Source of the DNA: Thermodesulfovibrionales bacterium
GTDB lineage: Bacteria > Nitrospirota > Thermodesulfovibrionia > Thermodesulfovibrionales > SM23-35
Assembly (NCBI GenBank): GCA_030019415.1
Contig: JASEEX010000008.1
Span: 1 to 57,026, forward strand
Length of the DNA: 57,026 nt
Direction of reading: 5' to 3'
Position numbers and translations under genes: made by a program. A model generated the notes under the pieces. It saw nothing but the letters and a program-made list of their open reading frames with translations. It did not search any database and had not been told where the DNA came from. This document shows positions 11,368 through 27,413 of the stretch, in pieces (the first letter of the stretch is position 1; every line of letters starts with the position of its first letter).

Positions 11368-12696
11368 TTAAAGAACTGGTAGATATTTTTCTATCTCATA
11401 AGGGTGAATCCTTATCCGGTAGTCATCCCACTCCACCTTCTTGCTGGTTATAAATTGCTCAAAGATATGGTCACCCAGGGTCTCCCTCAAGAGTTCGCTA
11501 TTTTCTGCATATTCTATGGCCCTATTAAGACTTCCAGGGAGGCAGTCTATGTTATATCTCTTCTTATCCTCATCAGAAAGGTGATAAACATCCATCTCAA
11601 TGGGTTCAGGGAGTTTATAGCCTTTCTCGACACCCTTTAGCCCTGCCTGAAGCATACAGGCAAATGCAAGATAAGGATTACAGGCAGGGTCAGGTGAGCG
11701 TAGCTCTATGCGAGTTGCCTTCTCTTTGCCAGGCTTGTAAAGGGGGACCCTCACAAGGGTTGACCTGTTTCGCCTTGCCCAGCAGATATACACAGGGGCT
11801 TCATAGCCAGAGACAAGTCTCTTGTAAGAATTAACCCATTGATTTAAAACAAGGGTAATCTCTTTTATATGGGTAAGGAGACCTGCAATATATTTCTTTG
11901 CTGTGTCTGAAAGAAAATACTGATCCTTCGGATCAAAGAAGGCATTTCTGTCGTCCTCAAAAAGTGACTGGTGTGTATGCATTCCGCTTCCATTCTGTCC
12001 GAATATGGGCTTCGGCATAAATGTGGCATAGACATCGTACTGTTTAGCTATCTCCTTCACGATTACCCTGTGAGTCATGACTATATCAGCCATTATGAGG
12101 GCATCTTCATACCTTAAATCTATCTCATGCTGTGAATGGGCGACCTCATGATGGGAATACTCTACCTTTATACCCATGGATTCAAGGGCAAGAATGGTAT
12201 CCCGACGAAGGTCCTCAGCAGCATCCAAAGGATAATCAAAATAGCCACCTTCATCGAGGGTCTCTGGACACCTGTCAGATTTAAAATAGAAATATTCAAG
12301 CTCAGGGCCGAGATAAAAGGTAAACCCCTTCTTTTTAGCTTTCTCAAGATTCATCTTCAGGACATATCTTGGATCACCCTTGTAAGGAGAACCATCTGGT
12401 TCATAGATATCGCAAAACATCCTCGCAACTGCCCTTTCCTTAGGCCTCCATGGAAGTATCGCAAAGGTCGTCGGGTCTGGCCTTGCTATCATGTCACTCT
12501 CGTCAATCCTCGCAAATCCCTTTATGGATGAGCCGTCAAATCCCATACCCTCATCAAAGGCAAATTCAAGTTCTTCAATGGGAATAGCAAAACTTTTGAG
12601 CTGGCCATGAATATCAGCAAACCAGAGCCTGATAAACTTCACATCATGCTTTTTTACCAACTCCATCACATCCTTTTTGTCTTTTGGTTTATCCAT
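11368..12696 (-). CDS. glnA: Glutamine synthetase type I (alpha-like)
   Basis: FDGSSI, GPELEYF, HHEVAHSQHE, FMPKP, NGSGMH, GYEAP, NRS, RIELRSPDP. Confidence 0.96.
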   Translation of the reverse strand: MDKPKDKKDVMELVKKHDVKFIRLWFADIHGQLKSFAIPIEELEFAFDEGMGFDGSSIKGFARIDESDMIARPDPTTFAILPWRPKERAVARMFCDIYEPDGSPYKGDPRYVLKMNLEKAKKKGFTFYLGPELEYFYFKSDRCPETLDEGGYFDYPLDAAEDLRRDTILALESMGIKVEYSHHEVAHSQHEIDLRYEDALIMADIVMTHRVIVKEIAKQYDVYATFMPKPIFGQNGSGMHTHQSLFEDDRNAFFDPKDQYFLSDTAKKYIAGLLTHIKEITLVLNQWVNSYKRLVSGYEAPVYICWARRNRSTLVRVPLYKPGKEKATRIELRSPDPACNPYLAFACMLQAGLKGVEKGYKLPEPIEMDVYHLSDEDKKRYNIDCLPGSLNRAIEYAENSELLRETLGDHIFEQFITSKKVEWDDYRIRIHPYEIEKYLPVL

Positions 12697-12944: not shown

Positions 12945-13105
12945 GGAAAACAGACCCTCTTTTCATCTCCAGACTCCAGAAAATCTCCAAGGACATGCAT
13001 GGTCCGTGAGAGATTCTTCTCAATATCAAAGGAAGAGTTCAGAACCCTGCTCACCTCAAGAAGCGCTGAAAGTATACGATTTTCTCTTATGAGGGATAGG
13101 GTCAT
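12945..13105 (-). pseudogene. N-terminal GAF remnant of a NifA-like sigma54 activator
   Basis: LSALLEVSRVLNSSFDIEKNLSRTMHVLGDFLE / MKRGSVFL; frameshifted by a 7-bp duplication (CTCCAGA x2, 12967-12980), then truncated; ATG overlaps the hisH stop. Confidence 0.55.
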
Positions 13106-13731
13106 CTGAATGCCCACTCGCAAAAGTTTTTCAGAATCTTGAGGCCGGGCTTGCCGCTTTTTTCTGAATGGAACTGTGAGGCCACAAAATTCTTGCGAGC
13201 GATCACCGAGGCAAAGGCTATTCCGTATTCAGTTTTTCCCAGCACATATTCTTCCGAGGCGGGCGCTGGATAATAAGTGTGAACGAAATAGAACTCATTA
13301 TTGTCTGGAACTCCATCTATAACAGGATGTCTTTTGGTGAAAGTCACTGTATTCCACCCCATATGAGGAATCTTGAGTTTCTTCCCATCCGGTGAAAGGA
13401 GTGGATGCGGGAATCGCCTGACAGTACCTGGGATTAACCCTAGGCATTGGGTTTCGTCCTCTTCGCTTCTTTCCAGTACTATTTGAGCGCCGAGACAGAT
13501 ACCCAGAATTGGTTTACCCGTATAGAAGGCCCTTTTCAGGGCATCATCCAATCCCAATCTTTTGAGGCTGGCCATAGCTCGTCCTGCTGCTCCTACACCG
13601 GGAAAGATAATACTCTCTGCCTCCAATAGTTCCTCAGCTTTTTGGGTAATCCTGCATCTAAAGCCCAATTTTTTCACGGCTTGTTCAACACTGGTCAGGT
13701 TTCCTGCTTCATAATCGATGATGGCAATCAT
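13102..13731 (-). CDS. hisH: HisH-like class I glutamine amidotransferase
   Basis: MIAIIDYEAGNL, PGVG, GICLG (nucleophile), IPHMGWN, FYFVH, QFHSEKS (His-x-Glu kept); start reset to 13731. Confidence 0.9.
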   Translation of the reverse strand: MIAIIDYEAGNLTSVEQAVKKLGFRCRITQKAEELLEAESIIFPGVGAAGRAMASLKRLGLDDALKRAFYTGKPILGICLGAQIVLERSEEDETQCLGLIPGTVRRFPHPLLSPDGKKLKIPHMGWNTVTFTKRHPVIDGVPDNNEFYFVHTYYPAPASEEYVLGKTEYGIAFASVIARKNFVASQFHSEKSGKPGLKILKNFCEWAFR

Positions 13732-13738
13732 AGATATC

Positions 13739-14333
13739 CTACCGCTCCAGGCGGACTTTAATCCCTTTTCGATGGAGGTAGTCTTTGATCTCCCCGATAG
13801 TATAATGCCCGTAGTGAACCATGGAGGCAATGAGGGCGGCATCAGCCTCACCCTTAGTTAAAACCTGGTATATGTGCTCAGGGGTGCCTGCACCTCCAGA
13901 GGCGATGACTGGAATGTTAACGTTTCCTGAGATAAGGGCGGTCAGGGTCATTTCGTATCCATTCTGGGTACCATCGGCATCTATGGAGTTAAGACAGATT
14001 TCCCCTGCACCTAAGCTTTCTGCCTCCATGGCCCATTTTAAGGCATCTATACCTGTATAGGTTCTTCCTCCGTGGATAACAATTTCGTAGCCGGAGGGGA
14101 TATTTTCTGATTTCTCAACCTTCTTTACATCCATCCCCAAAACGATGCACTGGCTCCCGAAAGACTTAGCTCCCTCGGAAATAATCCCTGGATTCTTTAC
14201 TGCCGCCGTATTGACGCCCACCTTCTCCGCCCCGGCCAGAAGAATCCGGCGCACATCCTCTGTTGTCCTGATTCCTCCCCCTACTGAGAAGGGAATGAAA
14301 ATCTCTTTAGCCACACTGCGAACTACATCGATT
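13739..14333 (-). pseudogene. hisF: HisF-like cyclase lacking its N-terminal part
   Basis: Begins at [21 protein letters not shown]; no IIPCLD/DPV/LDI N-terminus; fused directly to LSAAWQLAL of the upstream gene. Confidence 0.8.
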
Positions 14334-14894
14334 TAAAGCAAGCTGCCACGCAGCACTCAATCCCCAGGACCTCCACCAATGACAGCTATTGTATGTCCTG
14401 ATGGTTTTTCCGTCTTTGGTGCTGGCAGGTCAATGGCAAGGCGTCCGTATTTATCAATGCTAAGAGGTTTGTCAAGCTGTCCCCTCGTGCAGCCCTGCAT
14501 GCAGAGGTTTGGACATATCTGTCCACATACCGTTGCAGGTAACGGGCTATATTGCAAAACCAGTTCCAGCGCCTCATGGAGTTTGCCCTGTCTTATAAGA
14601 GAAGCCCTTTTGTGTGAGGGTATATGTGTTGGGCATGCATACGCACATGGTGGCGCATACTTTTCATTTGCCCAGACCGGTTTATTTCGTCTATCCTTTC
14701 CTGTTGTTATATGCTGCAGCATTAAATGCACCATTGGTAACATCTCCTAAAACAGTAATTTTTGCACCACAGTTAAGCCAGCCTATGTCGTCAGAGGCAC
14801 TTCCTTTTACAATAATCTCGGTACCGAACATTCCCATGCTTCCAAGCCTCTGACCAACAGGACCCTCTACAGTTATTTTTATAGTCTCCCCCTT

Positions 14895-14909
14895 TCCGCC
14901 TGAGGCGGA
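14895..14909. repeat. 15-bp palindrome TCCGCCTGAGGCGGA
   Basis: Flanked by CCTT direct repeat; encodes SASGG inside the ORF. Confidence 0.85.
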
Positions 14910-15089
14910 CCTTGGCCAGATTCTGCCACCAATGCCATGCTGCCCATCAGCTATTATATGCAGTTCTCTTGCACCATCCCTGACCGCTTGCTGTATCTGC
15001 TCTTCAAGTATACGTGAAGGTACCCTTTTACCATTTACATTACCGTAAATGGTGACAATATCTTTTTTGTATGTCTTTTGACTGTTGAC

Positions 15090-15104
15090 TCCGCCTGAGG
15101 CGGA
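15090..15104. repeat. 15-bp palindrome TCCGCCTGAGGCGGA inside a TTGACTG heptamer array
   Basis: Flanked by TGAC direct repeat; encodes SASGG. Confidence 0.85.
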
Positions 15105-15129
15105 TGACTGTTGACTGTTGACTAATTTG

Positions 15130-15664
15130 TTAGCACGCATAACTAATCTCTAACCTCTCTGCCATTGCCTTGTCGTCTATACTCAGTCCGTCAGACATGC
15201 CAATGGGTAATTCTGTGCTCCTGCCCATTGGTGCAAATATCTTCTTTAACTCCACATTAGCAGCCTTGAAGATCTCTACCAGACGTTCAGCAACCCTATC
15301 AGAGTCAAGCCTTCTATAAAGTTTTGGGTCCTGTATAGTTATACCTCTTGGGCACTTACCTGTATTGCAGATGTTACAGCGATTATATTCGTCTCCGAAA
15401 CAATCTGCAGCCGCCTGCATTATGTATTTCCCAATAGAAACTGCTGAGCTGAACAATTCTCTGAACCTTAACAGTGGGTTCGATAGCCTTAACAGGACAT
15501 ACGGCAGTGCAACTGCCGCACCTCTTACATCTGTCGTCTCTCCAACGGATTATATATGGGAACTCCTTTAATGAGAGTTTATGATTGTAGTCTAATTTTG
15601 GGCGTAGGAGGGACTCCGTCCCTCCTACGAGACCTCCCTGAATTTTCCCTTCTATACTTATCAT
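15130..15664 (-). pseudogene. FMN glutamate-synthase subunit with most of its interior deleted
   Basis: N-terminal ferredoxin motif CKRCGSCTAVCP joined out of frame to the C-terminal CNICNTGKCPRGIT..DP segment. Confidence 0.8.
15603..15629. repeat. GTAG-type REP-like hairpin inside the ORF start
   Basis: CGTAGGAGGGA-CTCCG-TCCCTCCTACG perfect 11-bp stem. Confidence 0.7.
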
Positions 15665-15803
15665 GATATCACCCCTTTTGTTTGTATTTTCAAGGGGATT
15701 TCAAAAGGGGGAGGCTTGACGATTACCATGTCATATTTCATTGGAAATATATCCTCACATATTGCTTTTTCTCCGGTTAACCTATCTAAATTTGCTTCAA
15801 ATC

Positions 15804-15854
15804 GGCAATCGGTTACCGTATGTATATACTAAAAATTTTAAGGGCTTTTGTCAA
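15804..15854 (-). promoter_or_regulatory. sigma70 promoter plus candidate NrpR operator
   Basis: TTGACA-N17-TAGTAT (15854-15826), followed 8 nt later by GGTAACCGATTGCC (15817-15804). Confidence 0.6.
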
Positions 15855-15872: not shown

Positions 15873-16850
15873 TCACAGAAGCTCTTTAAACTTTGTGAGG
15901 TCAGAAAAACTGTAGAGGGTTGACATCGCCTTGCTCTCAGTCGGTATGCCTGCCTCTTCAAGGGCAGCGATGGGGTTAAGGCCCCCGACTATTACCATTC
16001 CTGCCCTGTCCATAGAAACAGGCATTTCAAGGAGAGGTTGGTTTGGATTGCCAAGGAGTAGAATACCTCCAATACCCTTTTCCTTCATAACAGCGCTCAA
16101 TTCTTTTGCCTTTTCAAGGCTCACAACAGGTATTTCCCTGAAACTTGCGAGGATTTTTCCATTGTGGTTTTTTACAGCACCTAAGACATCTGTCATTCTG
16201 CTCTTTATAAATATCTCAAGCGGGTCAAGGGAAGAGCCTTCATAGCTTATAAGTGCGGTGAACCTTGATGGCTCAGAGTTTTCTATCTGCAGTACACCAC
16301 CAAACTTCGATGTGACAGGCACCCCCACCTTAAGGAATATCCCGTTTATTGTCACGCTGCATACAGTGCCAAATCCTATCTGCCCCTTAGGGATGAAGAT
16401 ATCCCTAATCTTTTCACCACCTCTATGTATGACAACTTTATCAGACATGATATGCGGTGATGAAAAAACGGGCTTCATTATCCGTAGTGCTTCTTTAAGT
16501 TTTTCTTCAGGGAAATAGGAAACATTAAGAATTATGTCACCCTCTTTTTTCTCGATATCAAAATTTGTTAGATATGAGAGGGTCTCTATCTTGCTTATTA
16601 CAAAACCGACCTTTTCGGATACAAGGGCTTGGGATAGCTCTTCCCTACCTTTTTGCGTAATCATTCTACCTTCCTTCCCAAATACCTTTGTAAGACCTCT
16701 CTCATCGAGTATTCTGAGATGGTATCGAACAGTCCTTTCAGTAAGTTCTACTCCGTGGAGTTTTAACTGTCTCGATAACTCTCTTGAACCGAGTATTTTA
16801 TCTGGTTGTTTGTCAAGAATCTTTAAGATTGAAAGCATTGTCTTATTCAT
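15873..16850 (-). CDS. nrpR: NrpR nitrogen repressor (wHTH + DUF128/NRD)
   Basis: LGSRELS..L.ERTVRYHL..LDERGLT; TVCSVTINGI; ASFREIP; VGGLNP; start reset to MNKT. Confidence 0.9.
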   Translation of the reverse strand: MNKTMLSILKILDKQPDKILGSRELSRQLKLHGVELTERTVRYHLRILDERGLTKVFGKEGRMITQKGREELSQALVSEKVGFVISKIETLSYLTNFDIEKKEGDIILNVSYFPEEKLKEALRIMKPVFSSPHIMSDKVVIHRGGEKIRDIFIPKGQIGFGTVCSVTINGIFLKVGVPVTSKFGGVLQIENSEPSRFTALISYEGSSLDPLEIFIKSRMTDVLGAVKNHNGKILASFREIPVVSLEKAKELSAVMKEKGIGGILLLGNPNQPLLEMPVSMDRAGMVIVGGLNPIAALEEAGIPTESKAMSTLYSFSDLTKFKELL

Positions 16851-16851
16851 G

Positions 16852-19530
16852 TCAGGACTCCTTTTGCGGAACAATCCTCACGGCACATATCTTTGTCTCT
16901 AAAGTCTTTGCAGCCGGATCAGGAGAAGGATTAATAAGTTGGTTAATCTCCTTTTCCAAAAGATACATAGTTACTAAACCAGGTGGAGAAGCAGTCGTCA
17001 CCACTGCCTGTCCCTCTATTTCTCCCCAACGCGAAATTACTCTTACCACTTCTCCATTCTTGATCTCAAAATCAGTTGCATCTTTTGGGTTTATATATAC
17101 AAGCCTTTTTGCTCTTAAGGCCTTGAGTCCATCAACTTTCTGTGATAAAATGCCGTCTGAGTAAATATCCCTCTCTGCAATTAAGATCAGTGGGTAATCA
17201 ACATCGGGGACCTCCGCAGGGGGTCTGTATTGTAATGGTGTAAATTTGTACTTTCCATTTTGACCAGTCAAGCTTGTTTCAGCAAGATCAGACCATTTTA
17301 AACTACCTTTTCTCAGGCTGTTGTAAGAGATGTTTCTATATATAGGTGTGACTGATGCAATCTCAGACATAATATCTTCAGGGTTATTAAAATCAAATCC
17401 TCTACTGCCCATCCTCTCTGCTAAATTACAGATAATCTCCCAATCTGGCCTTGAATTGCCAATCGGCTCCATCGCTTTATTGATAATTTGAACCCGTGTC
17501 TCCGTATTTGTAAAAGTTCCATCTTTTTCGGCAAAGCTTGCTGCAGGTAAGATGACATCGGCAAATTGAGCCGTGTCATTTAAGAAGATGTCCTGAAAGA
17601 TGATGAATTCTGCCTTTTTTAATGCCTCCTTAACTTTATGTGAGCCGGCTATATTTGATACAGGATCAGAGCCCATGATATAGAAGGCTTTTATCTTTCC
17701 TTCTAAGGTATCCTGTAGTATTCCGGTGAGGGTTAGCCCGGGATTTGGGTTTAGGTCCTTTCCCCAAATGGATTTAAATCTCTTTCTCATTTCAGGTTGG
17801 TCCACTGCTTGGTACCCAGGATAAAAATCAGGTAGACAACCCATGTCGCAGACACCCTGCGAATTATTGTGGTCCATGAGTGGGTTAATACCATAGGAAG
17901 GCTTTGTAATGTTTCCTGTGAGCATAGATAAATTGATAAGTCCAAGCACATTATCTGTGCCATGAGAGTATTGAGTGAGCCCACTGGACCAGAGTATCGC
18001 TGATGGTTTATTAGTTGCAAAAATCTTCGCAGCCGAAGCAACCTTATCCCTTGAAACACCGGTAATCCTTTCTACTTTTCCAGATGGGAAATCATCTAAG
18101 GAATTTTTGAAGTCCTCAAAATTCTCACACTTTTCCTGGATAAAGGCATTATCGTGTAATTCTCCATCTAAAATTGCTTTGCACATACCCATAAAAAGGG
18201 CTAAATCTGTTCCAGGATAAGGTCTCAGCCATACTTTGGCGAAGCCACATAGGTCAATCTCTATGGGACTGACAACGATGAGTATTGCTCCATTCTCCAC
18301 TGCCTTCTTTACCCTCAACCCTATCACAGGATGGGACTGAGTGATATTTGCTCCCACAATAAGGATACTGGCGGCATTCTCAATCTCACTAATAGAGTTA
18401 GTGAGGGCATTTATTCCGTTTGTCTTAAGAAGAGCAGTAATAGAAGGAGCATCGCATAGTCGAACAGAACTATCAATGTTATTCGTGCCCATTACTACCC
18501 TGGCAAATTTTTGTGCGATATAACTCTCTTCATTAGTGCACTTAGTTGATGCGATAAGGGCAAACTCATCTCCTCGATAATTTTTAAGTTTACTCGCAAC
18601 TAAATCCAATGCTTCATCCCAGGATACTTCTCTGAAAAGTGACGGGTGACGAGTGACGAGTGACGAGTTTTTATTAGAAGATATTCTTATAAGAGGTGAG
18701 GTCAGCCTATCCTGAGAGTTAACAAAACTCAAGCCGAACCTTCCTTTAACGCACAGACGTCCACTGTTAACGGAGCTGTCAGCATCTCCTCTCACATTTA
18801 CAACAACATTGTCACGGATGCCAAGAACGATACTACAACCCACACCACAATAAGGACAGATCGTCTTGACTTCGTGCGAAGGACGGCGAAGATTTTTTGG
18901 TACCAGAGCACCAACAGGACACCTGACCACACATTCTCCACAGGACTCACATCTGGACTGGGCTATGGGCTTGTCTCCGAGCGTGGCTATTTTGGTGGAA
19001 TAACCCCTACCTGCGAAGTCAATAGCACTAACCTTCTGTATTTCCTGACATGTTCTTACACATATCCCGCATAGCACACATTTATTATGATCTCTTATGA
19101 AAAATGGATTTGAGTCATCAAGAGGCAATTCCTCTTTTGGGAATCTCAGATTCTGTTGAATCCTCTTTTTGTCTATCTTCATATAACCCATGATTCTCTG
19201 TAATTCGCACCGTCCCTTTTTAGCGCAATTTTTGCAATCCATGTGGTGATTGGCGATTATCATCTCAATAATCGGCCGCCGCACTTTATCTAATTCAGCG
19301 CTCTTTGTCTTAATGACCATCTCTTCCTTGACAGGTGTTCTGCATGAAGTGACAAGCTTACCATCATCCAGTTCAACAAGACATACACGACAGCTTCCAG
19401 CAGGCTTCAAATCAGGATGGTAGCAGAGATGGGGAATATAAATCTTGTTAGCCAATGCAGTTTCTAAAATGGTAGCACCTTTGTGAGCCATAATATCTTG
19501 ATCGTTAATTTTTATTGAAATCTTTTCCAT
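16852..19530 (-). CDS. FdhA/NuoG-like molybdopterin-family Fe-S protein with atypical active site
   Basis: [2Fe-2S] (C..GSCRVC..C), HHMDCKNC..C, two CxxCxxCxxxC, CPYCGVGC..CVKG; RLCDAPS and PLMDHNNSQG replace the FDH motifs RLCH and PLRGQNNVQG. Confidence 0.85.
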   Translation of the reverse strand: MEKISIKINDQDIMAHKGATILETALANKIYIPHLCYHPDLKPAGSCRVCLVELDDGKLVTSCRTPVKEEMVIKTKSAELDKVRRPIIEMIIANHHMDCKNCAKKGRCELQRIMGYMKIDKKRIQQNLRFPKEELPLDDSNPFFIRDHNKCVLCGICVRTCQEIQKVSAIDFAGRGYSTKIATLGDKPIAQSRCESCGECVVRCPVGALVPKNLRRPSHEVKTICPYCGVGCSIVLGIRDNVVVNVRGDADSSVNSGRLCVKGRFGLSFVNSQDRLTSPLIRISSNKNSSLVTRHPSLFREVSWDEALDLVASKLKNYRGDEFALIASTKCTNEESYIAQKFARVVMGTNNIDSSVRLCDAPSITALLKTNGINALTNSISEIENAASILIVGANITQSHPVIGLRVKKAVENGAILIVVSPIEIDLCGFAKVWLRPYPGTDLALFMGMCKAILDGELHDNAFIQEKCENFEDFKNSLDDFPSGKVERITGVSRDKVASAAKIFATNKPSAILWSSGLTQYSHGTDNVLGLINLSMLTGNITKPSYGINPLMDHNNSQGVCDMGCLPDFYPGYQAVDQPEMRKRFKSIWGKDLNPNPGLTLTGILQDTLEGKIKAFYIMGSDPVSNIAGSHKVKEALKKAEFIIFQDIFLNDTAQFADVILPAASFAEKDGTFTNTETRVQIINKAMEPIGNSRPDWEIICNLAERMGSRGFDFNNPEDIMSEIASVTPIYRNISYNSLRKGSLKWSDLAETSLTGQNGKYKFTPLQYRPPAEVPDVDYPLILIAERDIYSDGILSQKVDGLKALRAKRLVYINPKDATDFEIKNGEVVRVISRWGEIEGQAVVTTASPPGLVTMYLLEKEINQLINPSPDPAAKTLETKICAVRIVPQKES
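18639..18667. repeat. GTGACGA heptamer array (4 units) within the fdhA-like gene
   Basis: gtgacgg gtgacga gtgacga gtgacga g; encodes SSLVTRHPSL between PLIR and FREVSWDEA. Confidence 0.85.
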
Positions 19531-21164
19531 CAGTCACTCCCCTTCCGAACCCTACACACGCCGGATGGACACCTTTTTTCGTATATATGTGCTTCATACT
19601 CATCGCGAAAGTAACGCAGGGTAGTTAGCACAGGGTTAGGGGCCGTCCTGCCGAGACCACAGATGGAACTCCTCCTTATTGCCTCACCTAATTCTATGAG
19701 GAGGTCCATATCCTCAGGCCTGCCCTCGCCTTTAGTTATATCATCTAAAATCTCGAACATCTGTTTTGTTCCCAGCCTGCAAGGGACACACTGACCGCAG
19801 GACTCCCTCCGGGTAAAATCGAGAAAGTAACGTGCTACATCGACCATACAGGTATCTTCGTCCATCACTACCATACCTCCAGAACCCATTATTGAGCCAA
19901 TTTTGGTAAGAGAATCAAAATCTACAGGCGTATCTATCATATCTGCTGGTATACATCCACCAGAAGGTCCGCCTGTTTGAACAGCTTTCAGGGCTTTGCC
20001 TCCTGGTATTCCGCCTCCTATATCGTAGATGATTTTTCGAAGGTTAATCCCCATGGGAACCTCTATGAGACCGCAGTTTACAACCTTACCTGTCAATGAA
20101 AATATAGCAGTACCTTTACTTTTCTCAGTACCTTTTTGAGCAAACCACTCTGATCCATTCGATATTATTAAAGGGATATTGGCAAAGCTCTTCACATTAT
20201 TGAGAAGGGTTGGCCTGTTCCATAATCCTATCTCTGTTGTTCGAGCACGAGGCATCGGCTTAGGTCTCCCCCTCTTCCCCTCGATAGAGCGTACTAATGC
20301 AGTAGATTCACCACAAACAAAAGCACCTGCTCCCTGAAAGATCTCTATATCGAAATCAACCTCACTGCCCAAGATATGGCCACCAAGAAACCTGTTTTGC
20401 CTTGCCTGCTCAATAGCAATCTTTAGCCGCTTCACTGCTAATGGGTATTCTGCCCTCACATAGATAAGGCCGTTTCTGGCCCCTGTGGCATAACCTGCAA
20501 TTATCATCCCCTCCAAGACTGAATGGGGGTTTCCTTCCATAACAGAACGGTCCTGGAATGCTCCAGGGTCGCCTTCATCAGCATTGCATATTACATACTT
20601 TTCTTCACATGTTGTTCTGCGGCATGCCTCCCATTTGAGGCCAGTAGGAAAACCAGCGCCACCAAGACCCCTTAGCCCTGAGCCCTTAACTTCAAGGATA
20701 ATTTCTTCAGGGGTCATTTCAAGAAGGGCCTTACGAAGTGCCTGATAGCCCCCAACAGTAAGATAATCATCAATGTCTTCAGGGTCAATTTTCCCACAAT
20801 TTTTTAGGAGAATTCGTTCTTGTTTACTATAAAATGGAATATCCCGATAATGTGGTATTGGCTTGCCAGTGATAGGTTCTCGATAGAAAAGACGCTCTAA
20901 TGGCTTCCCTCCAAGTAAAATGGAATGGGCAATCTCAACGGCATCATCAGGGTTTACTTTTGTATAGAAAAAACCTTCAGGTTCTATTACAACAATAGGT
21001 TCTTGTTGGCAGAAACCTTGACAACCAGTTCGTTTAACATGGATATTTTCTGTGAGGTTCAAATTGCTTACTTCTTTTTCTAAGGAGGAAAAAACTTTTT
21101 CGGCTCCCACAGATATCCCACATGTTCCAAGGCCGACTAAAATACTCTTCTGTTCATTGGTCAT
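19530..21164 (-). CDS. NuoF/HydB-like FMN diaphorase with N-terminal thioredoxin-like Fe-S domain
   Basis: GTCG..GCQGFC; GLRGLGGAGFPTG; NADEGDPG; CGESTAL; GGPSGG; CGQCVPCR..C; no C-terminal 2x[4Fe-4S] domain. Confidence 0.9.
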   Translation of the reverse strand: MTNEQKSILVGLGTCGISVGAEKVFSSLEKEVSNLNLTENIHVKRTGCQGFCQQEPIVVIEPEGFFYTKVNPDDAVEIAHSILLGGKPLERLFYREPITGKPIPHYRDIPFYSKQERILLKNCGKIDPEDIDDYLTVGGYQALRKALLEMTPEEIILEVKGSGLRGLGGAGFPTGLKWEACRRTTCEEKYVICNADEGDPGAFQDRSVMEGNPHSVLEGMIIAGYATGARNGLIYVRAEYPLAVKRLKIAIEQARQNRFLGGHILGSEVDFDIEIFQGAGAFVCGESTALVRSIEGKRGRPKPMPRARTTEIGLWNRPTLLNNVKSFANIPLIISNGSEWFAQKGTEKSKGTAIFSLTGKVVNCGLIEVPMGINLRKIIYDIGGGIPGGKALKAVQTGGPSGGCIPADMIDTPVDFDSLTKIGSIMGSGGMVVMDEDTCMVDVARYFLDFTRRESCGQCVPCRLGTKQMFEILDDITKGEGRPEDMDLLIELGEAIRRSSICGLGRTAPNPVLTTLRYFRDEYEAHIYEKRCPSGVCRVRKGSD

Positions 21165-21627
21165 TCTTAACTCCTTCAATCACGGGAGGAAATAGCTCAT
21201 CGACTTTTTCTGAGGTCATTTCACCTACGACGTCCATATTTACCCGTATACATGGCGCAAGGGCACAACAACCAAAACAGGCAACGGTCTCGAGGGTATA
21301 CTCAAGGTCATCTGAGGTTTCCCCCTCTTTTAAGCCAATCGTTTTTTCTATCCTGTTAAGGATTTGAGGTGCACCTCGAATATGACATGCAGTTCCCCTG
21401 CATACTGCAATTCGCTTCCTCCCTAAAGGTAAAAGTCTGAACTGTGCATAGAAAGAGGCGACAGAGTAAACATGGCTTTCAGGAACACCGATAAATTTTG
21501 CAATATCTACCATTGACTTCTCTGGCAGATAACCAAGATTATCCTGCACCTCCTGAAGAATAGGTACAAGCTCGCCCCTATCACCTCGATAGGATGCTAA
21601 AATCTCTTCTAAAAGCTCCTCTTCCAT
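21154..21627 (-). CDS. NuoE/HydC-like [2Fe-2S] subunit
   Basis: VASFY, CRGTACH, CFGCCALAP. Confidence 0.92.
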   Translation of the reverse strand: MEEELLEEILASYRGDRGELVPILQEVQDNLGYLPEKSMVDIAKFIGVPESHVYSVASFYAQFRLLPLGRKRIAVCRGTACHIRGAPQILNRIEKTIGLKEGETSDDLEYTLETVACFGCCALAPCIRVNMDVVGEMTSEKVDELFPPVIEGVKNDQ

Positions 21628-21635
21628 ATCTTTAA

Positions 21636-21866
21636 CTAACGAGCCTTGGGTCTAACCCAATCTTCAGGAACCCATGGCCTCTTAGCCTCAAGATTTCTAT
21701 CAAAGCTTAAAGAAATACACACCGCACGGCAGATACCGCATCTATTGCACTTATCTGTGTCGGCATAAACGTTATTATCTCTCTCAGATATACTTATTGC
21801 CCCTGTAGGACAGCTAACCTCACAGAAAGGTGATACACAGTATTTATAGCAAATTAAATTCAGCAT
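21636..21866 (-). CDS. Small 4Fe-4S ferredoxin-like protein
   Basis: CYKYC..PFCEVSCPTGAI, CNRCGICRAVC; AAGGAGG RBS. Confidence 0.8.
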   Translation of the reverse strand: MLNLICYKYCVSPFCEVSCPTGAISISERDNNVYADTDKCNRCGICRAVCISLSFDRNLEAKRPWVPEDWVRPKAR

Positions 21867-21876
21867 CTTTACCTCC

Positions 21877-23442
21877 TTATCCTAAGATTTTTTCTACTTC
21901 TTTCATGTCTGCTTCCATTACATATGGTATGCCAGAGACATCCGCTGCTTCGCGAGTAAGGGACATCAAGTCACCTCTATCTACTAAATTAAGAACAAAT
22001 TTACGAGCCCCTGCCATGAGCTGCTTGAGCCCCACCGCGAGTCTGTCATAATAAGTATAGACACCTATTGCTGCTGGAGGTATTTTCTTAAAATCTCCCC
22101 CATATTTTTCCTTGAGCGCTGCGGCACCGGCAAAGGTGCGAAGAAGGGCATCCTCATATTCCCTGCCCTTTCCATAAGTCTCTTGTAGAAGTTTTCCCTG
22201 CGTCTTTCCTACCATGCCTGCTGTGAGGGTAGCCCGCCCCATACATACCGCTTTCACGTAAGGGGCTCCAAGTGCTATAGCCTTGAAAATCTGGTCCTCA
22301 AGGACAATACCACCAGCTATGGCGACGCTGGGGATAAATTTACCCTTTTCTTCGAGTCTTTTTAAAAATTTATAAAGGAGGCTTTCGAGATAGACCGTGG
22401 GGATTCCCCATTCATTCATCATCCGCCAGGGGCTCATACCAGTCCCTCCGCCGGCTCCATCCACAGTTAGAAGGTCTATTCTGGCCTCCGATGCAAACTT
22501 CACTGCACGGGCTAAATCTGCTGGCCTGTAAGCACCTGTTTTGAGGGTAACATACTTAGCACCTATACTCCTCAGCCTTTCCACCTCTTCTAAGAATGAT
22601 TCTTCATCTACCATTCCGAGGCGGGAATGCCTCTCAAATTCTGGTATCCCTCCAAGTTTATGTGCCTCCTGGACTACAGGATTCTCAGGGTCAGGGATAA
22701 CGATATATCCCCTTTGCTTAAGTTGTATCGCCCTTTCGAGGATTGGTAGCTTAACCTCCCCACCAATGCTCTTTGCCCCTTGTCCCCACTTTATTTCGAT
22801 ACCTTCAACCCCGAGCTTCTCTATCGCATATTCAGGGACGCCGAGACGGGTATCCTCCACATTTGCCTGAATGAGCATCGTCCCATAGCCTTCATACCAA
22901 TCCTTGTAAACCTTTACCCTTCTTTCAAGTTCAGGGGATCTCGAGATCCCTCCATTTCTAAACTCTGCATTTGGGTCCATTCCGCAAACATTCTCACCAC
23001 AGACAAGGACGGATCCACTGATAGCTATGCCAATGGCAGTACCTTCCCAGTTTACCCTCGCTATTTCAGTCGAACCGAGGGCTCCAGTGAAGAAAGGGAC
23101 TTTCATCGGAATTCTTTTTCCATCAGTCCCAATCTCTGAAGACACACTCACAGCAGGGAATGTGGCCTTGTCAGGGTCGGGCTCAATACCCATAGCCCCG
23201 ACACATGTGCCCTGAATATTGAAGTGCGAAAAATCTACTGGATAGTCCTTTTCTGACCCGGAGATAACCTTTCCAAAAGGCTGCGGGTAAATAACCTCCC
23301 TTCCCCGAAGGGCAGATCTTCCAACCTCGCAGTAACCAGGACAACCATCCACACAGTTAACGCATAACCCGGAGGTAGGCGAAGGCGCTACCCTCGTCGT
23401 TGTTACAGTTGCTGCACTTGCATTTGGCTTACTTAGACTCAT
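21877..23442 (-). CDS. Stand-alone FMN-binding glutamate synthase family protein
   Basis: IEIKWGQGAKSIGGE, LKTGAYRP, DGAGGGTG, AIAGG, LGAPYVKAVCMGR; N-terminal CVNCVDGCPGYC; no amidotransferase domain. Confidence 0.88.
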   Translation of the reverse strand: MSLSKPNASAATVTTTRVAPSPTSGLCVNCVDGCPGYCEVGRSALRGREVIYPQPFGKVISGSEKDYPVDFSHFNIQGTCVGAMGIEPDPDKATFPAVSVSSEIGTDGKRIPMKVPFFTGALGSTEIARVNWEGTAIGIAISGSVLVCGENVCGMDPNAEFRNGGISRSPELERRVKVYKDWYEGYGTMLIQANVEDTRLGVPEYAIEKLGVEGIEIKWGQGAKSIGGEVKLPILERAIQLKQRGYIVIPDPENPVVQEAHKLGGIPEFERHSRLGMVDEESFLEEVERLRSIGAKYVTLKTGAYRPADLARAVKFASEARIDLLTVDGAGGGTGMSPWRMMNEWGIPTVYLESLLYKFLKRLEEKGKFIPSVAIAGGIVLEDQIFKAIALGAPYVKAVCMGRATLTAGMVGKTQGKLLQETYGKGREYEDALLRTFAGAAALKEKYGGDFKKIPPAAIGVYTYYDRLAVGLKQLMAGARKFVLNLVDRGDLMSLTREAADVSGIPYVMEADMKEVEKILG

Positions 23443-23575
23443 CTTCTTCCTCCTTAATTAAGTTGAAAGTTAAAAGTTTAAAGTTAGGACATGTCCCCCA
23501 GACCACATTGTCACCCGCATAGAGTAAGTCTATGAGGTTGTCGAGGTCATCTATGCCAGATGATATTTGACTCAT
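23429..23575 (-). pseudogene. N-terminal remnant of a KaiC/RAD55-like-domain protein fused to heptamer repeats
   Basis: MSQISSGIDDLDNLIDLLYAGDNVVW, then repeat-derived NFKLLTFN; not in ORF track; family call from recall. Confidence 0.5.
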
Positions 23576-23579
23576 AATA

Positions 23580-23633
23580 GGTAAACGGTTACCTTTTGAC
23601 AATCATTTTAAAGATTCGCAGAATATTTTTCAA
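23580..23633 (-). promoter_or_regulatory. sigma70 promoter plus candidate NrpR operator
   Basis: TTGAAA-N17-TAAAAT (23633-23605), followed 11 nt later by GGTAACCGTTTACC (23593-23580). Confidence 0.65.
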
Positions 23634-23726: not shown

Positions 23727-24332
23727 TTGATAAACTTCCCCATGTTCAATAATCAAGCAGCTGAACTCACATTAGAAAAAAAATTGTACCAATTAGTTAT
23801 CAGCAGGCTTGATGGATACAATATCCATTCTCAGGCGTATAAGGAAAAGATATTTAAACTCGTAGAAAAAGGAATTGGTGGATTCGTAATCTTTGGTGGA
23901 AGAAGAAATGAGATAAAGGGTTTCATTAACAAAATCCAGTCCATCTCAGAGATTTCTTTATTCATAGCATCAGATGTTGAATGTGGCGTGGGGCAGCAGA
24001 TCAAGGATGCAACCCTATTTCCATGCCAGATGGCTATGGCAGCGGCAATCGGTAGAAATATACCCGGAGATGTCATACCCCCTGGAAATACAATAAAGGC
24101 TATAGCTCAGGAATCGACAGATATTGGAATAAATATGCCCCTCATTCCGGTCCTGGATGTTAATCAAAATCCTGATAATCCAATTATCTGCACAAGGGCC
24201 TTCTCTGACAATCCTGAGGATGTGGCGTGGTTCGGCTCAGAGTATATAAGAATATTGGAGGGATCAGGCCTTATAAGCTGTGCCAAGCACTTTCCAGGAC
24301 ATGGAGATACGGCTGCAGATTCTCATATATCC
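23727..24332 (+). pseudogene. nagZ: GH3 beta-N-acetylhexosaminidase (NagZ-like), 3'-truncated
   Basis: ASDVECG, PVLDVN.NP.NPII..RAF, KHFPGHGDT..DSH, then an abrupt switch into AmpG sequence. Confidence 0.8.
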
Positions 24333-25003
24333 TATCAACATTTTTGGGTTCCGAACCAGAGGAGAGAATAACTCCTCCTTTTAGCCTCCAGGAGGCTGTA
24401 TTAGGTCCGTTAAAGGATTATTTTTCGAGAAACGCTACCATTCCGCTGCTATTTTTAATAGTGCTCTACAAGTTAGGAGATGCCTATGCAGGTGTCTTAA
24501 CCACAGCCTTTCTTATAAAGGGCATCGGGTTTTCGGCAAGCGAGATAGGTACAATAAACAAAGGGCTTGGCCTCGTCTCCCTGATAGCAGGTGCCATGTT
24601 CGGAGGCTCCTTAATGGTACGCCTTGGCCTTTTCCGCTCTTTACTCAGCTTTGGCATATTGCAGGCATTATCCAATCTCTCATTCGTGTTTCTCACATGG
24701 ATAGGTAAGAGTTACGGGATGCTGATTTTTGCTGTTGCCTTCGAAAATCTGAGTGGTGGTATGGGCACGGCAGCCTTTATTTCACTCCTTATGGCAATGT
24801 GCAATCATCGCTACACAGCAACACAATATGCACTGTTGTCATCCCTTGCTGCCCTTGGGCGGATATTTATCGGCCCCACTTCTGGTTTTGTGGCTGAAGC
24901 ACTGGGCTGGGCCGGCTTCTTTTTCATTACAGCTCTGTCGGCTCTGCCCGGATTGTGGCTTTTGTGGTGGCTACGTCATGAGGTATCAGCTTTGGAAAAG
25001 TAG
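24328..25003 (+). pseudogene. ampG: C-terminal half of AmpG muropeptide permease
   Basis: LYKLGDA, FENLSGGMGT.AF, TATQYALLSS; N-terminal half absent. Confidence 0.8.
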
Positions 25004-25076
25004 AAGGGGTTAGTATATCTGAGAGTGGTTTGATATAATTGCGGAGGCCCTATGGACGAGATAATCAAAGAGGATC

Positions 25077-25985
25077 ATGAAAATGAAGACTATTGATATT
25101 CATACCCATGGCATAGGTGGTTATGATATAAGAACGACTGCTGAGGAGGACATTCTTAAAATAGCAGAAATACTTGGCTCCTACGGAGTCTCAGAAATCA
25201 TACTCACCGTATACTCTGCTCCCTTAAAGGTAATGATGGAAAGTATGATGGCAGTCAAAAAGGCAATGGAGAAGCAAAAAGACATTTCAAATCCCCCACC
25301 CCCCTTTTCTAAAAGGGGGCATGGGGGGATTAATCACCCATCACGAATAATCGGCGTTCATCTTGAAGGACCCTTTCTGAATCCATCAAAATGCGGTGCC
25401 CTCAATGCAATGACATTCATCGAACTAACAGAGTATAACCTCAGGGAACTCCTTGAAGGTTTTGAGGATATTGTAAAGATAATAACTATTGCACCAGAGA
25501 TAAAGGGGGCTACAGGGTTTATCAAAAAGATATCAGATAGGGGAATCATTGTCAGCATGGGTCATTCTGATGCGACCTTCTCAGAAGCAGAGGCTGGTCT
25601 TAATGCAGGGGCGAGAGGTATCACGCACATCTTCAATGCAATGCGAGGTTTTCATCACAGAGAGCCTGGAATTGCTGGTTTTGGCCTTTTAAATAAGGAC
25701 ATTTATATTGAGGTTATAGCAGACCCCTTTCATTTACACCCAAAGACACTGGAGCTGATATTCAGAACAAAGAATCCCGGAAGGATAATAATTGTTTCTG
25801 ATTCAGTAAAAGAGACACCCTCCCCCTCACTCCCTCCCTTTGCTATTACTGATACTCAAGGCAGACTTCGGGGTGGCTCGATGACAATTGTTGAATCCTC
25901 AAAGAGATTAATCCAGATGGGATTTGACAAAGTCGTTATTATGGGATGTATAACTACGAATCCCGAAAGATACCTATCAGTGTGA
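25077..25985 (+). CDS. nagA: N-acetylglucosamine-6-phosphate deacetylase (compact)
   Basis: DIHTHG, HLEGPF, GHSDA, THIFNAM, VSDS; carries a hairpin-derived insert. Confidence 0.85.
   Translation: MKMKTIDIHTHGIGGYDIRTTAEEDILKIAEILGSYGVSEIILTVYSAPLKVMMESMMAVKKAMEKQKDISNPPPPFSKRGHGGINHPSRIIGVHLEGPFLNPSKCGALNAMTFIELTEYNLRELLEGFEDIVKIITIAPEIKGATGFIKKISDRGIIVSMGHSDATFSEAEAGLNAGARGITHIFNAMRGFHHREPGIAGFGLLNKDIYIEVIADPFHLHPKTLELIFRTKNPGRIIIVSDSVKETPSPSLPPFAITDTQGRLRGGSMTIVESSKRLIQMGFDKVVIMGCITTNPERYLSV
25290..25331. repeat. C/G-rich hairpin inserted in frame in nagA
   Basis: AATCCCCC-ACC-CCCCTTTT-CT-AAAAGGGG-GCAT-GGGGGGATT; encodes NPPPPFSKRGHGGI. Confidence 0.65.
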
Positions 25986-26001
25986 ACCCGGGTTTTTAAA
26001 C

Positions 26002-26527
26002 TCACGGTGGTATCATCTTACCCAGAATCACCTCATGGGTGGCTCCTGTTGCAGAGGGAAGGTTTCCGGGCTTTAGATTCAGGGTTTGATATCCCAGGAT
26101 AGCAAAATTGATTGCCTCCTTAGACTCAGGAGGGAGTTGATCCTGCCTTTCTTCCAGACGGTGGGATATGGTATATATTCTGACCATGAGAGGCGATGGC
26201 ATCTATGTCTTCTGGTCTGAATTCCGTACCTTTAAGGAGAGTCAAAGCAGCCCTCGCAAAGACCTCTCCTAATTTAAAATTCAATCTACAAATATGCTCA
26301 ACATTGCCTTTAAATGCCATTCCTATCTCATTTCTTAAAGATCTGTTAAAAGGCAGATGAATATGGTTGATGAGCTTAATCTTTATCTTATTGGAGTTAT
26401 ATCCTTCACTTATTTTATTATTCAAACCTTCTCTTATCTCTACGAGAGCAGCATCGACGCCGTCATGGGATGTCCCTGACATGAGACCTATAATCCTTGC
26501 ATTTCTCTTTTTTGCAATCTTGAACAA
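26002..26527 (-). pseudogene. anmK: Anhydro-MurNAc kinase with large internal deletion
   Basis: GLMSGTSHDGVD..SHGQ..H..GST joined out of frame near 26134 to the C-terminal KEA..FA.L..PGNLPSATGA..VILG. Confidence 0.88.
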
Positions 26528-26528
26528 A

Positions 26529-27413
26529 TTATCCTACCCCGAGAGCCTTCCTCAAAGAACCTCCCATTTTTTCAAGGAGATCTATTGCATCCTCATAGCT
26601 TAGCTTCTTTATATACATCACTATGGCAATCTTTGCATTACCACCTGATTTTTCAAGGAATGCCTTAGCATCTTCATGACCACATCCTGTTGTATCCTGA
26701 ATTATTCTTAAGGCACGACCTTTTAACTTTTTACTTGAAGGAACAACATCTACCATGTAGCCCTTATAAACTCTACCGAGCTTTATCATGGTAGTAGTAG
26801 AGACTATATTTAAGACTATTTTAGTAGCCGTTCCTGCCTTAAGCCTGGTTGAACCTGCAATAATCTCGGGTCCTACAGAGACCCTGATTACTCCATCGGG
26901 AAAATCATATTCCTTATTGCTACATGTCAAAAGCCAGCACTTAGCACCTCTTCGTTTACCCTCTCTTAAAGCAGATATTACAAAAGGAGTACTACCACTG
27001 GCAGTTATGCCTAAGAGCATATCCTTTTCTTTTATATCCGAAACAGCCTTCCTTCCAGCGTCTTCATCATCTTCTGCGCCTTCCACTGCTGTGGTAATAG
27101 CCTTTTCTCCTCCTGCTATGATTGCCCTGATTATATTGGTGGGCAGATTAAAGGTCGGCTGCATCTCTGAGGCATCAAGCATGCCGAGTCTGCCACTTGT
27201 TCCCGCCCCAACATAAACGATGCTCCCCCCGGAGACTATAGTGTTGATTGCATCCTTTGTAGCCATGGATATGGAGTCCTTTGCATCCTTAATAGCCTTT
27301 ACAACATGCAGGTCTTCACCATTCATGATGCCTATAATCTCTTCCACGGAAAAGAGATCGATGTCTGCAAAGCGGGGGTCAATATCCTCAGTAGACATAG
27401 GATATGGTAGCAT
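26529..27413 (-). CDS. murQ: MurNAc-6-phosphate etherase
   Basis: GAGTSGRLG.LDASE..PTF, EGAEDD, GPEIIAGSTRLKAGTA.K, MVDV. Confidence 0.95.
   Translation of the reverse strand: MLPYPMSTEDIDPRFADIDLFSVEEIIGIMNGEDLHVVKAIKDAKDSISMATKDAINTIVSGGSIVYVGAGTSGRLGMLDASEMQPTFNLPTNIIRAIIAGGEKAITTAVEGAEDDEDAGRKAVSDIKEKDMLLGITASGSTPFVISALREGKRRGAKCWLLTCSNKEYDFPDGVIRVSVGPEIIAGSTRLKAGTATKIVLNIVSTTTMIKLGRVYKGYMVDVVPSSKKLKGRALRIIQDTTGCGHEDAKAFLEKSGGNAKIAIVMYIKKLSYEDAIDLLEKMGGSLRKALGVG

Follow-up and report, generated by a model that had tools for sequence, protein, structure and literature searches.

The window analysed here, a contig of 57,026 nucleotides from a Thermodesulfovibrionales bacterium (C155 of a 1.94-Mb draft assembly in 166 contigs, 100% complete by marker genes), hosts six open reading frames (ORFs) that combine a GltB-like FMN protein with electron-transfer subunits and a nitrogen regulator. 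All six lie on the minus strand and run from 23442 to 15873. The loci closest to the window carry the record titles of Nitrospirota and Thermodesulfovibrionales metagenome-assembled genomes.

The first gene (21877..23442) encodes a GltB-like FMN TIM-barrel protein of 521 aa, recognised by Pfam, motifs and profile alignment, which we refer to as the FMN protein. It is followed after 10 nt by the gene for a ferredoxin of 76 aa with eight Cys residues (21636..21866; Fer4 families) and, after a further 8 nt, by that for a NuoE/HoxE/BfuC-type [2Fe-2S] thioredoxin-like subunit of 157 aa (21154..21627), which matches PF01257 at 160.4 bits and NF005722 at 147.1 bits (cut-off 141). This NuoE gene overlaps by 26 nt, or 11 nt when counted from the next ATG, with the gene for a NuoF/BfuB-type NAD(P)H- and FMN-binding subunit of 549 aa (19530..21179; PF01512, PF10589). 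An overlap of 1 nt leads to the FdhA-like subunit of 892 aa (16852..19530), with its Fer2_4, NADH-G_4Fe-4S_3, Fer4, Molybdopterin and Molydop_binding domains and a match to TIGR01591. The last gene of the operon, overlapping the previous one by 23 nt, encodes an NrpR-type nitrogen repressor of 333 aa (15873..16874; PF01995, HTH_12).

Pfam and NCBIfam agree with the names of all six genes. An earlier note on this DNA had described a tight operon of this make-up without GltD, and the ORF list and spacing bear out both points. A GltD-like Fer4_20 fragment is found just downstream of the operon, at 14357-14743, and one intact GltD-like gene on another contig, C78. The arrangement is more than chance. 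Its gene order is seen again in related Nitrospirota, and the linkage also recurs across phyla.

The FMN protein and its family

The FMN protein matches the glutamate synthase family PF01645 (Glu_synthase) at 57.9 bits (cut-off 20.4), over residues 277-397 only. It has no GATase_2 or GXGXG match in Pfam and no match in NCBIfam. It carries the motifs EIKWGQGAK (residues 216-224) and DGAGGGTGMSP (residues 328-338), and near its N-terminus the motif C27-x2-C30-x3-C34-x3-C38, which is invariant in 39/39 aligned members of the family. When compared with the Cys spacing of the GltB 3Fe-4S motif, the region after the barrel shows no such motif and holds a single Cys (C400). This agrees with the earlier description of an FMN protein of the glutamate synthase family that lacks an amidotransferase and has an N-terminal CxxCxxxCxxxC in place of the canonical GltB 3Fe-4S motif.

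A profile alignment made with hhalign between the FMN protein and the GltB FMN domains of its relatives has a probability of 95.7% (E 8.8e-9, 250 columns), with the EIKxxQGAK and DG..GGTG.SP motifs in register. Nine bona fide GltB or archaeal-type FMN subunits from related genomes all show EIK[IMY][AG]QGAKPG.GG, for which the window protein has EIKWGQGAKSIGGE. In GltS structures the Gln and Lys of the QGAK region contact 2-oxoglutarate. By sequence comparison, the homology between the FMN protein and the GltB FMN (synthase) domain is genuine, though distant. An AlphaFold model (mean predicted local distance difference test score 71.5, with a confident core and poorly predicted residues 1-93) has an FMN-type TIM barrel. 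When the PDB was searched with the sequence of the FMN protein, the sole hit was a designed TIM barrel (E 0.0025).

The distance of this relationship leaves room for a different reading of the same complex, namely that the FMN protein reduces or oxidises some other nitrogen-related compound, e.g. a different 2-oxo acid or imine, or, like N-methylglutamate synthase, an N-alkyl glutamate, or that it oxidises glutamate. In its favour, the homology to GltB is distant, NCBIfam has no matching model, the top structural neighbours are hydroxy-acid oxidases, and the family name of PF01645 also extends to enzymes such as N-methylglutamate synthase. Furthermore, relatives host up to three tandem FMN paralogues (about 83%, 63% and 54% identical to the query), which suggests diversified specificity. 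However, the QGAK-region and FMN-phosphate motifs align with those of GltB, the neighbouring genes are glnA, gdh and general nitrogen regulators with no special catabolic pathway, and no other glutamate-forming enzyme was found in this genome. We consider a different substrate possible but doubtful.

The FMN family is very large, is extremely well conserved between phyla and carries generic names only. A protein database clustered at 90% identity holds at least 8000 members at E 1e-20, the top 120 of which are all 520-522 aa long. In a language-model atlas, the FMN protein falls among clusters automatically named ferredoxin-dependent or FMN-binding glutamate synthase, some of them commonest in methanogens. 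One related protein of 800 aa (P0242) has a Fer4 dicluster and an FrhB/FdhB-type F420 module fused to an FMN-protein homologue; this part is 35% identical over residues 25-393 and keeps the N-terminal Cys motif, QGAK, ERHS, KTGAY and GGTGMSP. No fused forms of 913-2605 aa were found at E 1e-30, which is weak evidence.

Across phyla, we drew on a one-genome-per-species scan that gave 591 relatives, and counted neighbourhoods in the best 80 loci. These encode proteins 65-87% identical to the FMN protein and come from Nitrospirota, Chloroflexota, Desulfobacterota, Bacillota, Actinomycetota and others, where phylum labels are those of the record titles. When L001, L004, L011 and L015 are compared with the window, the FMN protein shows 80-87% identity between loci titled Chloroflexota, Thermoproteota, Bacillota and Nitrospirota, and this could reflect transfer of the operon between phyla or mis-binned contigs. 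In five loci of relatives (L097, L098, L099, L103 and L104) two further FMN paralogues (~63% and ~54%) lie in tandem or adjoin nrpR, with no NuoEF directly beside them.

Among genomes of the same family, the ferredoxin, NuoE and NuoF genes come directly after the FMN gene in 8/8 loci of the closest type (type A). The FdhA-like gene is next in all four of these loci with a long enough contig, and NrpR lies beside the cluster. In the cross-phylum set, in which only loci with enough flanking sequence were counted, a small ferredoxin gene directly follows the FMN gene in 29/73 loci, while NuoE and NuoF follow directly in 9/61, an FdhA-like gene in 4/39 and NrpR is nearby in 9/31. The NuoEF linkage clusters in loci with 80% or more identity to the query, where 9/11 testable loci have it. 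A synteny survey had been proposed as a check on the operon; the linkage holds in relatives and across phyla, and the NuoEF part of it is confined to one FMN subclade.

In other phyla, the place of the FdhA-like subunit is taken by a 225-aa Fer2_4 protein (cluster c15) that resembles HoxU and the N-terminal part of NuoG; counted together, the two forms follow in 7/39 cross-phylum loci. A short form of the operon, FMN-ferredoxin-NuoE-NuoF-c15, occurs in loci with Chloroflexota and Thermoproteota titles, and an Actinomycetota-titled locus (L042, 67% identity) has FMN-NuoE-NuoF-c15 without a separate ferredoxin. A further arrangement is seen in 13 loci with Deltaproteobacteria or Desulfobacterota titles (L019-L051, L065). 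There, the FMN and ferredoxin genes are followed by an aldehyde:ferredoxin oxidoreductase (AOR), a 124-aa Fe-S protein and a 947-aa HdrA-like Fe-S flavoprotein, with NuoE and a long NuoF further on, in a cluster that resembles the Wor-Bfu type.

Electron-transfer subunits

The eight Cys residues of the ferredoxin are C6, C10, C15 and C19, and C40, C43, C46 and C50; of these, C6, C10, C19, C40, C43, C46 and C50 are invariant in 30/30 sequences. The ferredoxin belongs to a specific family of 68-78 aa that is encoded directly after the FMN gene, also beside FMN genes without NuoEF.

NuoF matches PF01512, PF10589 and, weakly, PF10531 (21.5 bits), and has an N-terminal 2Fe-2S-like domain. The protein ends seven residues past an H-x5-C-x4-C motif, and the C-terminal 2x[4Fe-4S] domain (IPR017896; B3/B4) is missing. 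In the bifurcating (Bfu) family, H525, C531 and C536 are ligands of the B2 [2Fe-2S] cluster, and almost all bifurcating BfuB proteins are reported to have them, whereas homologues that do not bifurcate lack them (Schut et al. 2022, PMC9304861). The spacing of the NuoF motif equals that of these three ligands, and each of the 14 short and 9 long NuoFs that we compared keeps the motif. The same genome encodes NuoF paralogues on contigs C78, C100, C104 and C120 that are of the full Bfu type, with 60-134 further residues carrying the Cys motifs of the 2x[4Fe-4S] domain, and a complex-I-like copy on C85 that has neither the H-x5-C-x4-C motif nor the C-terminal domain. As for the definition of the Bfu family, the FMN-binding, SLBB and NADH 4Fe-4S domains are present in NuoF and the NuoE-type 2Fe-2S domain in NuoE, whereas the ferredoxin-type 2x[4Fe-4S] domain of BfuB is absent from NuoF. 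In type, NuoF is a bifurcating (Bfu) protein from which the C-terminal ferredoxin domain has been lost.

In a phylogeny of NuoF, the 14 short proteins, with Nitrospirota, Chloroflexota, Bacillota and Thermoproteota titles and each encoded beside FMN and ferredoxin genes, form one clade (support 100/99) that is nested among the long Bfu-type NuoFs. The long FMN-adjacent NuoFs of L042 (Actinomycetota) and L032 fall outside this clade. Since they belong to other clades, the association between FMN protein and NuoF arose at least twice.

These features raise the question of whether the complex bifurcates electrons, in which case NADH electrons would be split between 2-iminoglutarate, at high potential, and the complex's own 8-Cys ferredoxin or a cellular ferredoxin, at low potential. 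Assimilating nitrogen would in that case also produce reduced ferredoxin. The B2 signature kept in NuoF (PMC9304861), its N-terminal 2Fe-2S-like domain, the full Bfu-type paralogues beside a complex-I-like copy that lacks the motif, and the nesting of the short NuoFs among long ones are all consistent with such a glutamate synthase, as is the dedicated ferredoxin of the operon. By our own estimate, the potentials of the couples would make the reaction feasible. However, the B3/B4 domain, which belongs to the definition of the family and through which electrons are proposed to reach ferredoxin, is missing from NuoF. The idea that the small ferredoxin stands in for this tail is ambiguous, as a profile of the ferredoxin scores 17-35 bits on the tails of long NuoFs and also matches archaeal GltB proteins at their N-termini (13-24 bits). 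The same ferredoxin is also found beside FMN genes without NuoEF, where a plain electron donor fits better. Bifurcation therefore strikes us as unlikely here.

The third subunit of the electron-transfer module is the FdhA-like protein. It begins with an Fe-S domain that resembles NuoG and HoxU (residues 1 to about 215), behind which lies a molybdopterin-type domain that retains the pterin-domain Fe-S motif. In formate dehydrogenase, a Cys or Sec that ligates Mo or W, a His and an Arg have catalytic roles. When the FdhA-like protein is aligned to FdsA, the catalytic Cys-His reads C-D and the Arg reads M. In ten FMN-linked sequences, i.e. the window protein and nine orthologues, the residue at the ligand position is C in four, S in two, T in one and Y in two; it is followed by D, H, Q or Y, and in place of the Arg stands M, F, W, L, A or S, with R in none. 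The ratio of nonsynonymous to synonymous substitution rates (dN/dS), measured against two relatives, is 0.13-0.19, so the FdhA-like gene is maintained by purifying selection.

Could the operon simply encode two unrelated, co-transcribed enzymes, with NuoE-NuoF-FdhA working as an NAD-dependent formate dehydrogenase and the FMN protein as an enzyme of its own that depends on ferredoxin? The FdhA-like protein scores 683.2 against TIGR01591, above the cut-off of 666.25, the closest proteins of known structure are formate dehydrogenases of the FdsA type (9wxb_B and 6tg9_A, E 6.6e-174), and similar NuoE-NuoF-FdhA clusters are found on C78 and C100. Against this, neither the His nor the Arg position is conserved across the ten sequences, none of which has the Arg, the ligand varies, and the paralogue on C100 does keep C-H and R. 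Furthermore, other phyla use the 225-aa Fe-S protein, which has no pterin domain, and the short-NuoF clade occurs only beside FMN and ferredoxin genes. Two independent enzymes thus seem very improbable.

We read the FdhA-like protein instead as a putative electron-wire scaffold with a retired, structural pterin domain, and not as a formate dehydrogenase. The pterin domain is read as retired because the catalytic residues are lost, the protein is maintained and other phyla have only the 225-aa equivalent of its N-terminal part. The C-terminal part of NuoG in complex I, a retired domain with a structural role, offers a comparison. The earlier proposal that NuoEF and the FdhA-like protein serve as electron input survives in part: the NuoE/NuoF linkage is kept, while the FdhA-like subunit is catalytically degenerate and swapped for the 225-aa protein elsewhere. 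It follows that the constant module is NuoE/NuoF plus a NuoG/HoxU-like Fe-S domain.

The cluster on C78 (about 54200-61700) deserves a separate mention. It encodes NuoE, a long Bfu-type NuoF and an FdhA-like protein that has C-H but a Gly at the Arg position, and the intact GltD-like gene mentioned above comes directly after it (PF14691, 150.9 bits). This cluster may encode an Nfn/Stn-like or NADPH-linked enzyme.

Nitrogen context of the operon

The genes that surround the FMN gene across phyla have much to do with nitrogen. In the best 80 loci, with each neighbour cluster named from one Pfam-scanned representative, the recurrent clusters are NrpR (18), GAF-ANTAR (15), an NtrC-like sigma-54 response regulator (14), HisF (13), glutamine synthetase (9), the NAD synthase NadE (8) and glutamate dehydrogenase (6), followed by CarA (5), CarB (5), a GAF histidine kinase (5) and PurF (4). 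The recurrent genomic company of the FMN gene is therefore nitrogen regulation and assimilation across phyla. The position of NrpR relative to the FMN gene varies by phylum: it may lie after the FdhA-like gene, before a HisF-FMN pair, directly upstream or in divergent orientation. This variation argues for a regulatory tie rather than inherited synteny.

The NrpR of the window has a helix-turn-helix and NRD1/2 domains, matching PF01995 at 298.1 bits and PF08461 at 62.9 bits. The operator known from methanogens, GGAA-N6-TTCC, is absent from the FMN promoter; the window as a whole has three matches against 1.71 expected, one of them inside the FMN gene at 23108. A sigma-70-like promoter match on the minus strand, TTGTCA-17-TATTAT (23574..23602; a consensus match only), contains a perfect palindrome, GGTAAACGGTTACC, at 23580-23593, 140-150 nt upstream of the FMN gene. 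A copy with one mismatch is found at 15804-15817, after nrpR and ahead of the eroded glutamate synthase (GOGAT) operon described below. Sites resembling GG.AA-N4-TT.CC occur upstream of FMN genes in 14/106 regions, a count that includes several duplicates from the same genomes. The palindrome GGTAAACGGTTACC is a lead only, as a candidate bacterial NrpR operator unlike the GGAA-N6-TTCC of methanogens. Some NrpR-linked relatives have GGTAACCGTTTGCC or GGCAA-N4-TTGCC sites upstream of their FMN genes.

Profile searches of the assembly found no PF00310 glutaminase domain and no glutamate dehydrogenase (GDH) above cut-off. In this genome no PF01645 match exceeds that of the FMN protein (47.3 bits); among 30 related genomes, 29 reach at least 198 bits. 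A weak PF01645 match on contig C76 was considered as a hidden GOGAT and rejected, as it is GuaB adjoining GuaA. The GXGXG domain, which is absent from the FMN protein and its operon, occurs in the genome only as one copy on contig C91 and, at 14739-14900, as a remnant. The gene for glutamine synthetase is intact (glnA, 442 aa, 11368..12696 on the minus strand; Pfam via the homologous query from L046) and is part of the same nitrogen island.

What is left of a conventional enzyme lies directly after nrpR, where fragments of an archaeal-type GOGAT operon are found at 14366..15798 on the minus strand by matches to intact orthologues. They comprise pieces of an Ntn-amidotransferase-like gene, where only 45 residues are left of the divergent Ntn-like subunit found in L107, residues ~11-62 and 450-557 of a Fer4-FMN subunit of 557 residues, and residues 2-147 and 325-443 of a 473-aa GXGXG/GltD-like subunit. 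The fragments are 68-90% identical to the intact orthologues and have large internal deletions. In L107, a locus from the same genus, an intact archaeal-type GOGAT operon directly follows nrpR. Related-strain contigs from one dataset (X1) diverge from the window at 14332, 14712 and 15755, which does not settle the reality of the deletion junctions.

Some further observations concern the surroundings and history of the operon. At 13102-14314, a HisH-like class-I amidotransferase ORF adjoins a HisF-like ORF that lacks about 62 N-terminal residues; a full-length HisF is encoded on contig C66, and HisF-like genes lie between nrpR and the FMN gene in loci from Dehalococcoidia. On the other side of the operon, at 23727-27413, neighbouring ORFs match Pfam models partially (Glyco_hydro_3 1-186 of 316, MFS_1 171-345 of 347 and AnmK 2-104 of 367), which suggests that decay or frameshifts have affected genes more widely here. 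A comparison of 15876-23442 with L107 gives a mosaic of synonymous divergence (dS): 0.069 for the FMN gene, 0.33 for the ferredoxin, 0.50 for nrpR and 0.86-1.18 for NuoE, NuoF and the FdhA-like gene. This mosaic points to recent recombination or replacement within the operon.

A proposed route to glutamate

We propose, giving it about an even chance, that the operon encodes a nitrogen-regulated, NAD(P)H-fed, multi-subunit complex that forms glutamate. In this complex, a Bfu-derived NuoEF/NuoG-like wire and the small ferredoxin would replace GltD. NAD(P)H would be oxidised at the FMN of NuoF, with NuoE as its partner, and the electrons would pass to the Fe-S clusters of the NuoG/HoxU-like N-terminal part of the FdhA-like subunit, whose molybdopterin domain would be a non-catalytic scaffold. 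From there they would reach the 8-Cys ferredoxin and then the N-terminal 4-Cys cluster of the GltB-like protein, whose FMN would yield glutamate by reducing the 2-iminoglutarate that 2-oxoglutarate and ammonia form. NrpR would link expression to nitrogen status via 2-oxoglutarate. Inference extends to the assembly into one complex, the sequence of electron carriers, the substrate, the source of nitrogen (ammonia or a separate glutaminase) and the choice between NADH and NADPH; ammonia is probably used directly. The earlier note had named NADPH as the electron source, and we find no evidence that favours NADPH over NADH.

It is reasonable to suppose that the operon forms glutamate without GltD, and perhaps without glutamine, given the gene linkage, the homology to GltB, the nitrogen-related neighbours, the missing PF00310 and GDH matches and the eroded GOGAT operon. 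If the organism makes its own glutamate, the operon is the only candidate found for this task. It is probably an undescribed route to glutamate in anaerobic bacteria. In our literature searches, which did not extend to the supplementary clade tables of the Bfu paper, no paper was found that describes this FMN family together with NuoEF or NrpR.

Several points weigh against this proposal. The PF01645 match of the FMN protein spans profile positions 185-302 of 369, about one-third of the GltB model, and the protein fails strict glutamate synthase membership because the glutaminase, GXGXG and 3Fe-4S parts are absent. When the model is searched with Foldseek and aligned with VIA-align, alpha-hydroxy-acid oxidases, IDI-2 and IMPDH rank first (Z 18-19); Azospirillum GltB comes after those folds, with Z 14.0 and the longest alignment (297 residues). 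Structure alone therefore does not single out GltB; the sequence comparison does. NuoEF is not adjoining in 52/61 testable FMN-family loci, some loci in the two linkage counts come from the same genomes, and related genomes cannot count as independent. The genome is a draft in 166 contigs, and the organism could take up amino acids. Finally, 19 related genomes hold both the FMN gene and a classical GOGAT. The earlier suggestion of a glutamate-forming role thus has GltB homology, nitrogen neighbours and the lack of another detected glutamate-forming enzyme on its side; but since most relatives keep classical GOGAT, the FMN system is an extra one and not a general replacement.

How does the proposed complex compare with known systems? 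With GltB/GltD and ferredoxin-glutamate synthase it shares a homologous FMN TIM-barrel domain, in which EIKxxQGAK and GGTGxSP align, and the context of nitrogen assimilation. Its proposed Fe-S route to FMN is a likeness too, as electrons reach FMN via Fe-S clusters in the mechanism of glutamate synthase (PMC8097209, section 6.1). Unlike GltB, the operon protein has no PurF-type glutaminase, GXGXG domain or 3Fe-4S motif and has the N-terminal 4-Cys motif instead, and its donor would be NuoE/NuoF with a NuoG-like Fe-S subunit and a small ferredoxin, not GltD. The archaeal-type split GOGAT is similar in having a stand-alone FMN subunit of about 520-560 aa and 2x[4Fe-4S] ferredoxin modules, and in relatives its operon adjoins nrpR. 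However, its FMN subunit scores 198-247 bits against PF01645, compared with 47-58 bits for the operon protein, whose ferredoxin is a separate gene product and which has no conserved amidotransferase or GXGXG partner.

Putative F420H2-dependent glutamate synthases (FGltS) of methanogens were predicted in PMC3448663 and are mentioned in PMC3087415 and 10.1101/2021.09.25.461819. They too combine a glutamate-synthase-type FMN subunit with a swapped-in electron-input module, and the FrhB-like fusion P0242 exists, but the input module here is of the NuoEF/Bfu type, not FrhB, and FGltS is itself unproven. Like FdsABG and the Fdh-type Bfu enzymes, the operon has NuoE-like, NuoF-like and fused NuoG-FdhA subunits in the same order; it differs in the unconserved Cys-His and Arg of the FdhA-like protein and in a NuoF that has the B2-type motif without the C-terminal ferredoxin domain. 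Compared with both, it adds an FMN enzyme, a ferredoxin and a nitrogen regulator.

The Bfu family, including Nfn-Bfu/Stn with its GltD-like module, is close in its BfuC-, BfuB- and BfuA-like subunits, B2 signature, N-terminal 2Fe-2S domain and modular principle of a 'third reaction', although the ferredoxin-type domain by which BfuB is defined is absent from the operon NuoF. The main text of the Bfu paper does not contain the word 'glutamate', and its supplementary tables were outside our coverage; it lists 18 uncharacterised clades, which might include the short-NuoF cluster (PMC9304861). The 'GOGAT' operon GSU1235-1239 of Geobacter, with a pyridine-nucleotide-disulphide oxidoreductase and an Fe-S protein, seems to differ in arrangement, as judged by gene names alone. 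Two preprints were considered as precedents and rejected: the 'glutamate synthase' of the GapMind preprint concerns N-succinylglutamate synthase, and the GOGAT in the M. maripaludis fitness preprint is the archaeal one with three genes.

A bolder reading, which we find rather doubtful as a whole, is that the family represents a new enzyme class in anaerobic bacteria and archaea. Here, a glutaminase-less, GltB-like FMN/[4Fe-4S] protein would reductively aminate 2-oxoglutarate with free ammonia and without ATP, pulled by low-potential electrons or co-producing reduced ferredoxin. A truncated Bfu-type core would drive the NuoEF-linked subclade, with the molybdopterin domain as a scaffold as in NuoG.

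If the FMN protein and its relatives do form glutamate, many anaerobes, e.g. Nitrospirota, Dehalococcoidia, Desulfobacterota and methanogens, would have a second, overlooked entry point for nitrogen. The electron inputs of the family would be interchangeable, with ferredoxin, NuoEF and FrhB-like modules serving the same kind of enzyme, and the operon would show in nature how a formate-dehydrogenase subunit can become an electron wire without catalytic function. It would also add a new branch to the Bfu family and give the bacterial NrpR its first defined regulon. Metabolic models and nitrogen-limitation studies of such anaerobes would then need revision.

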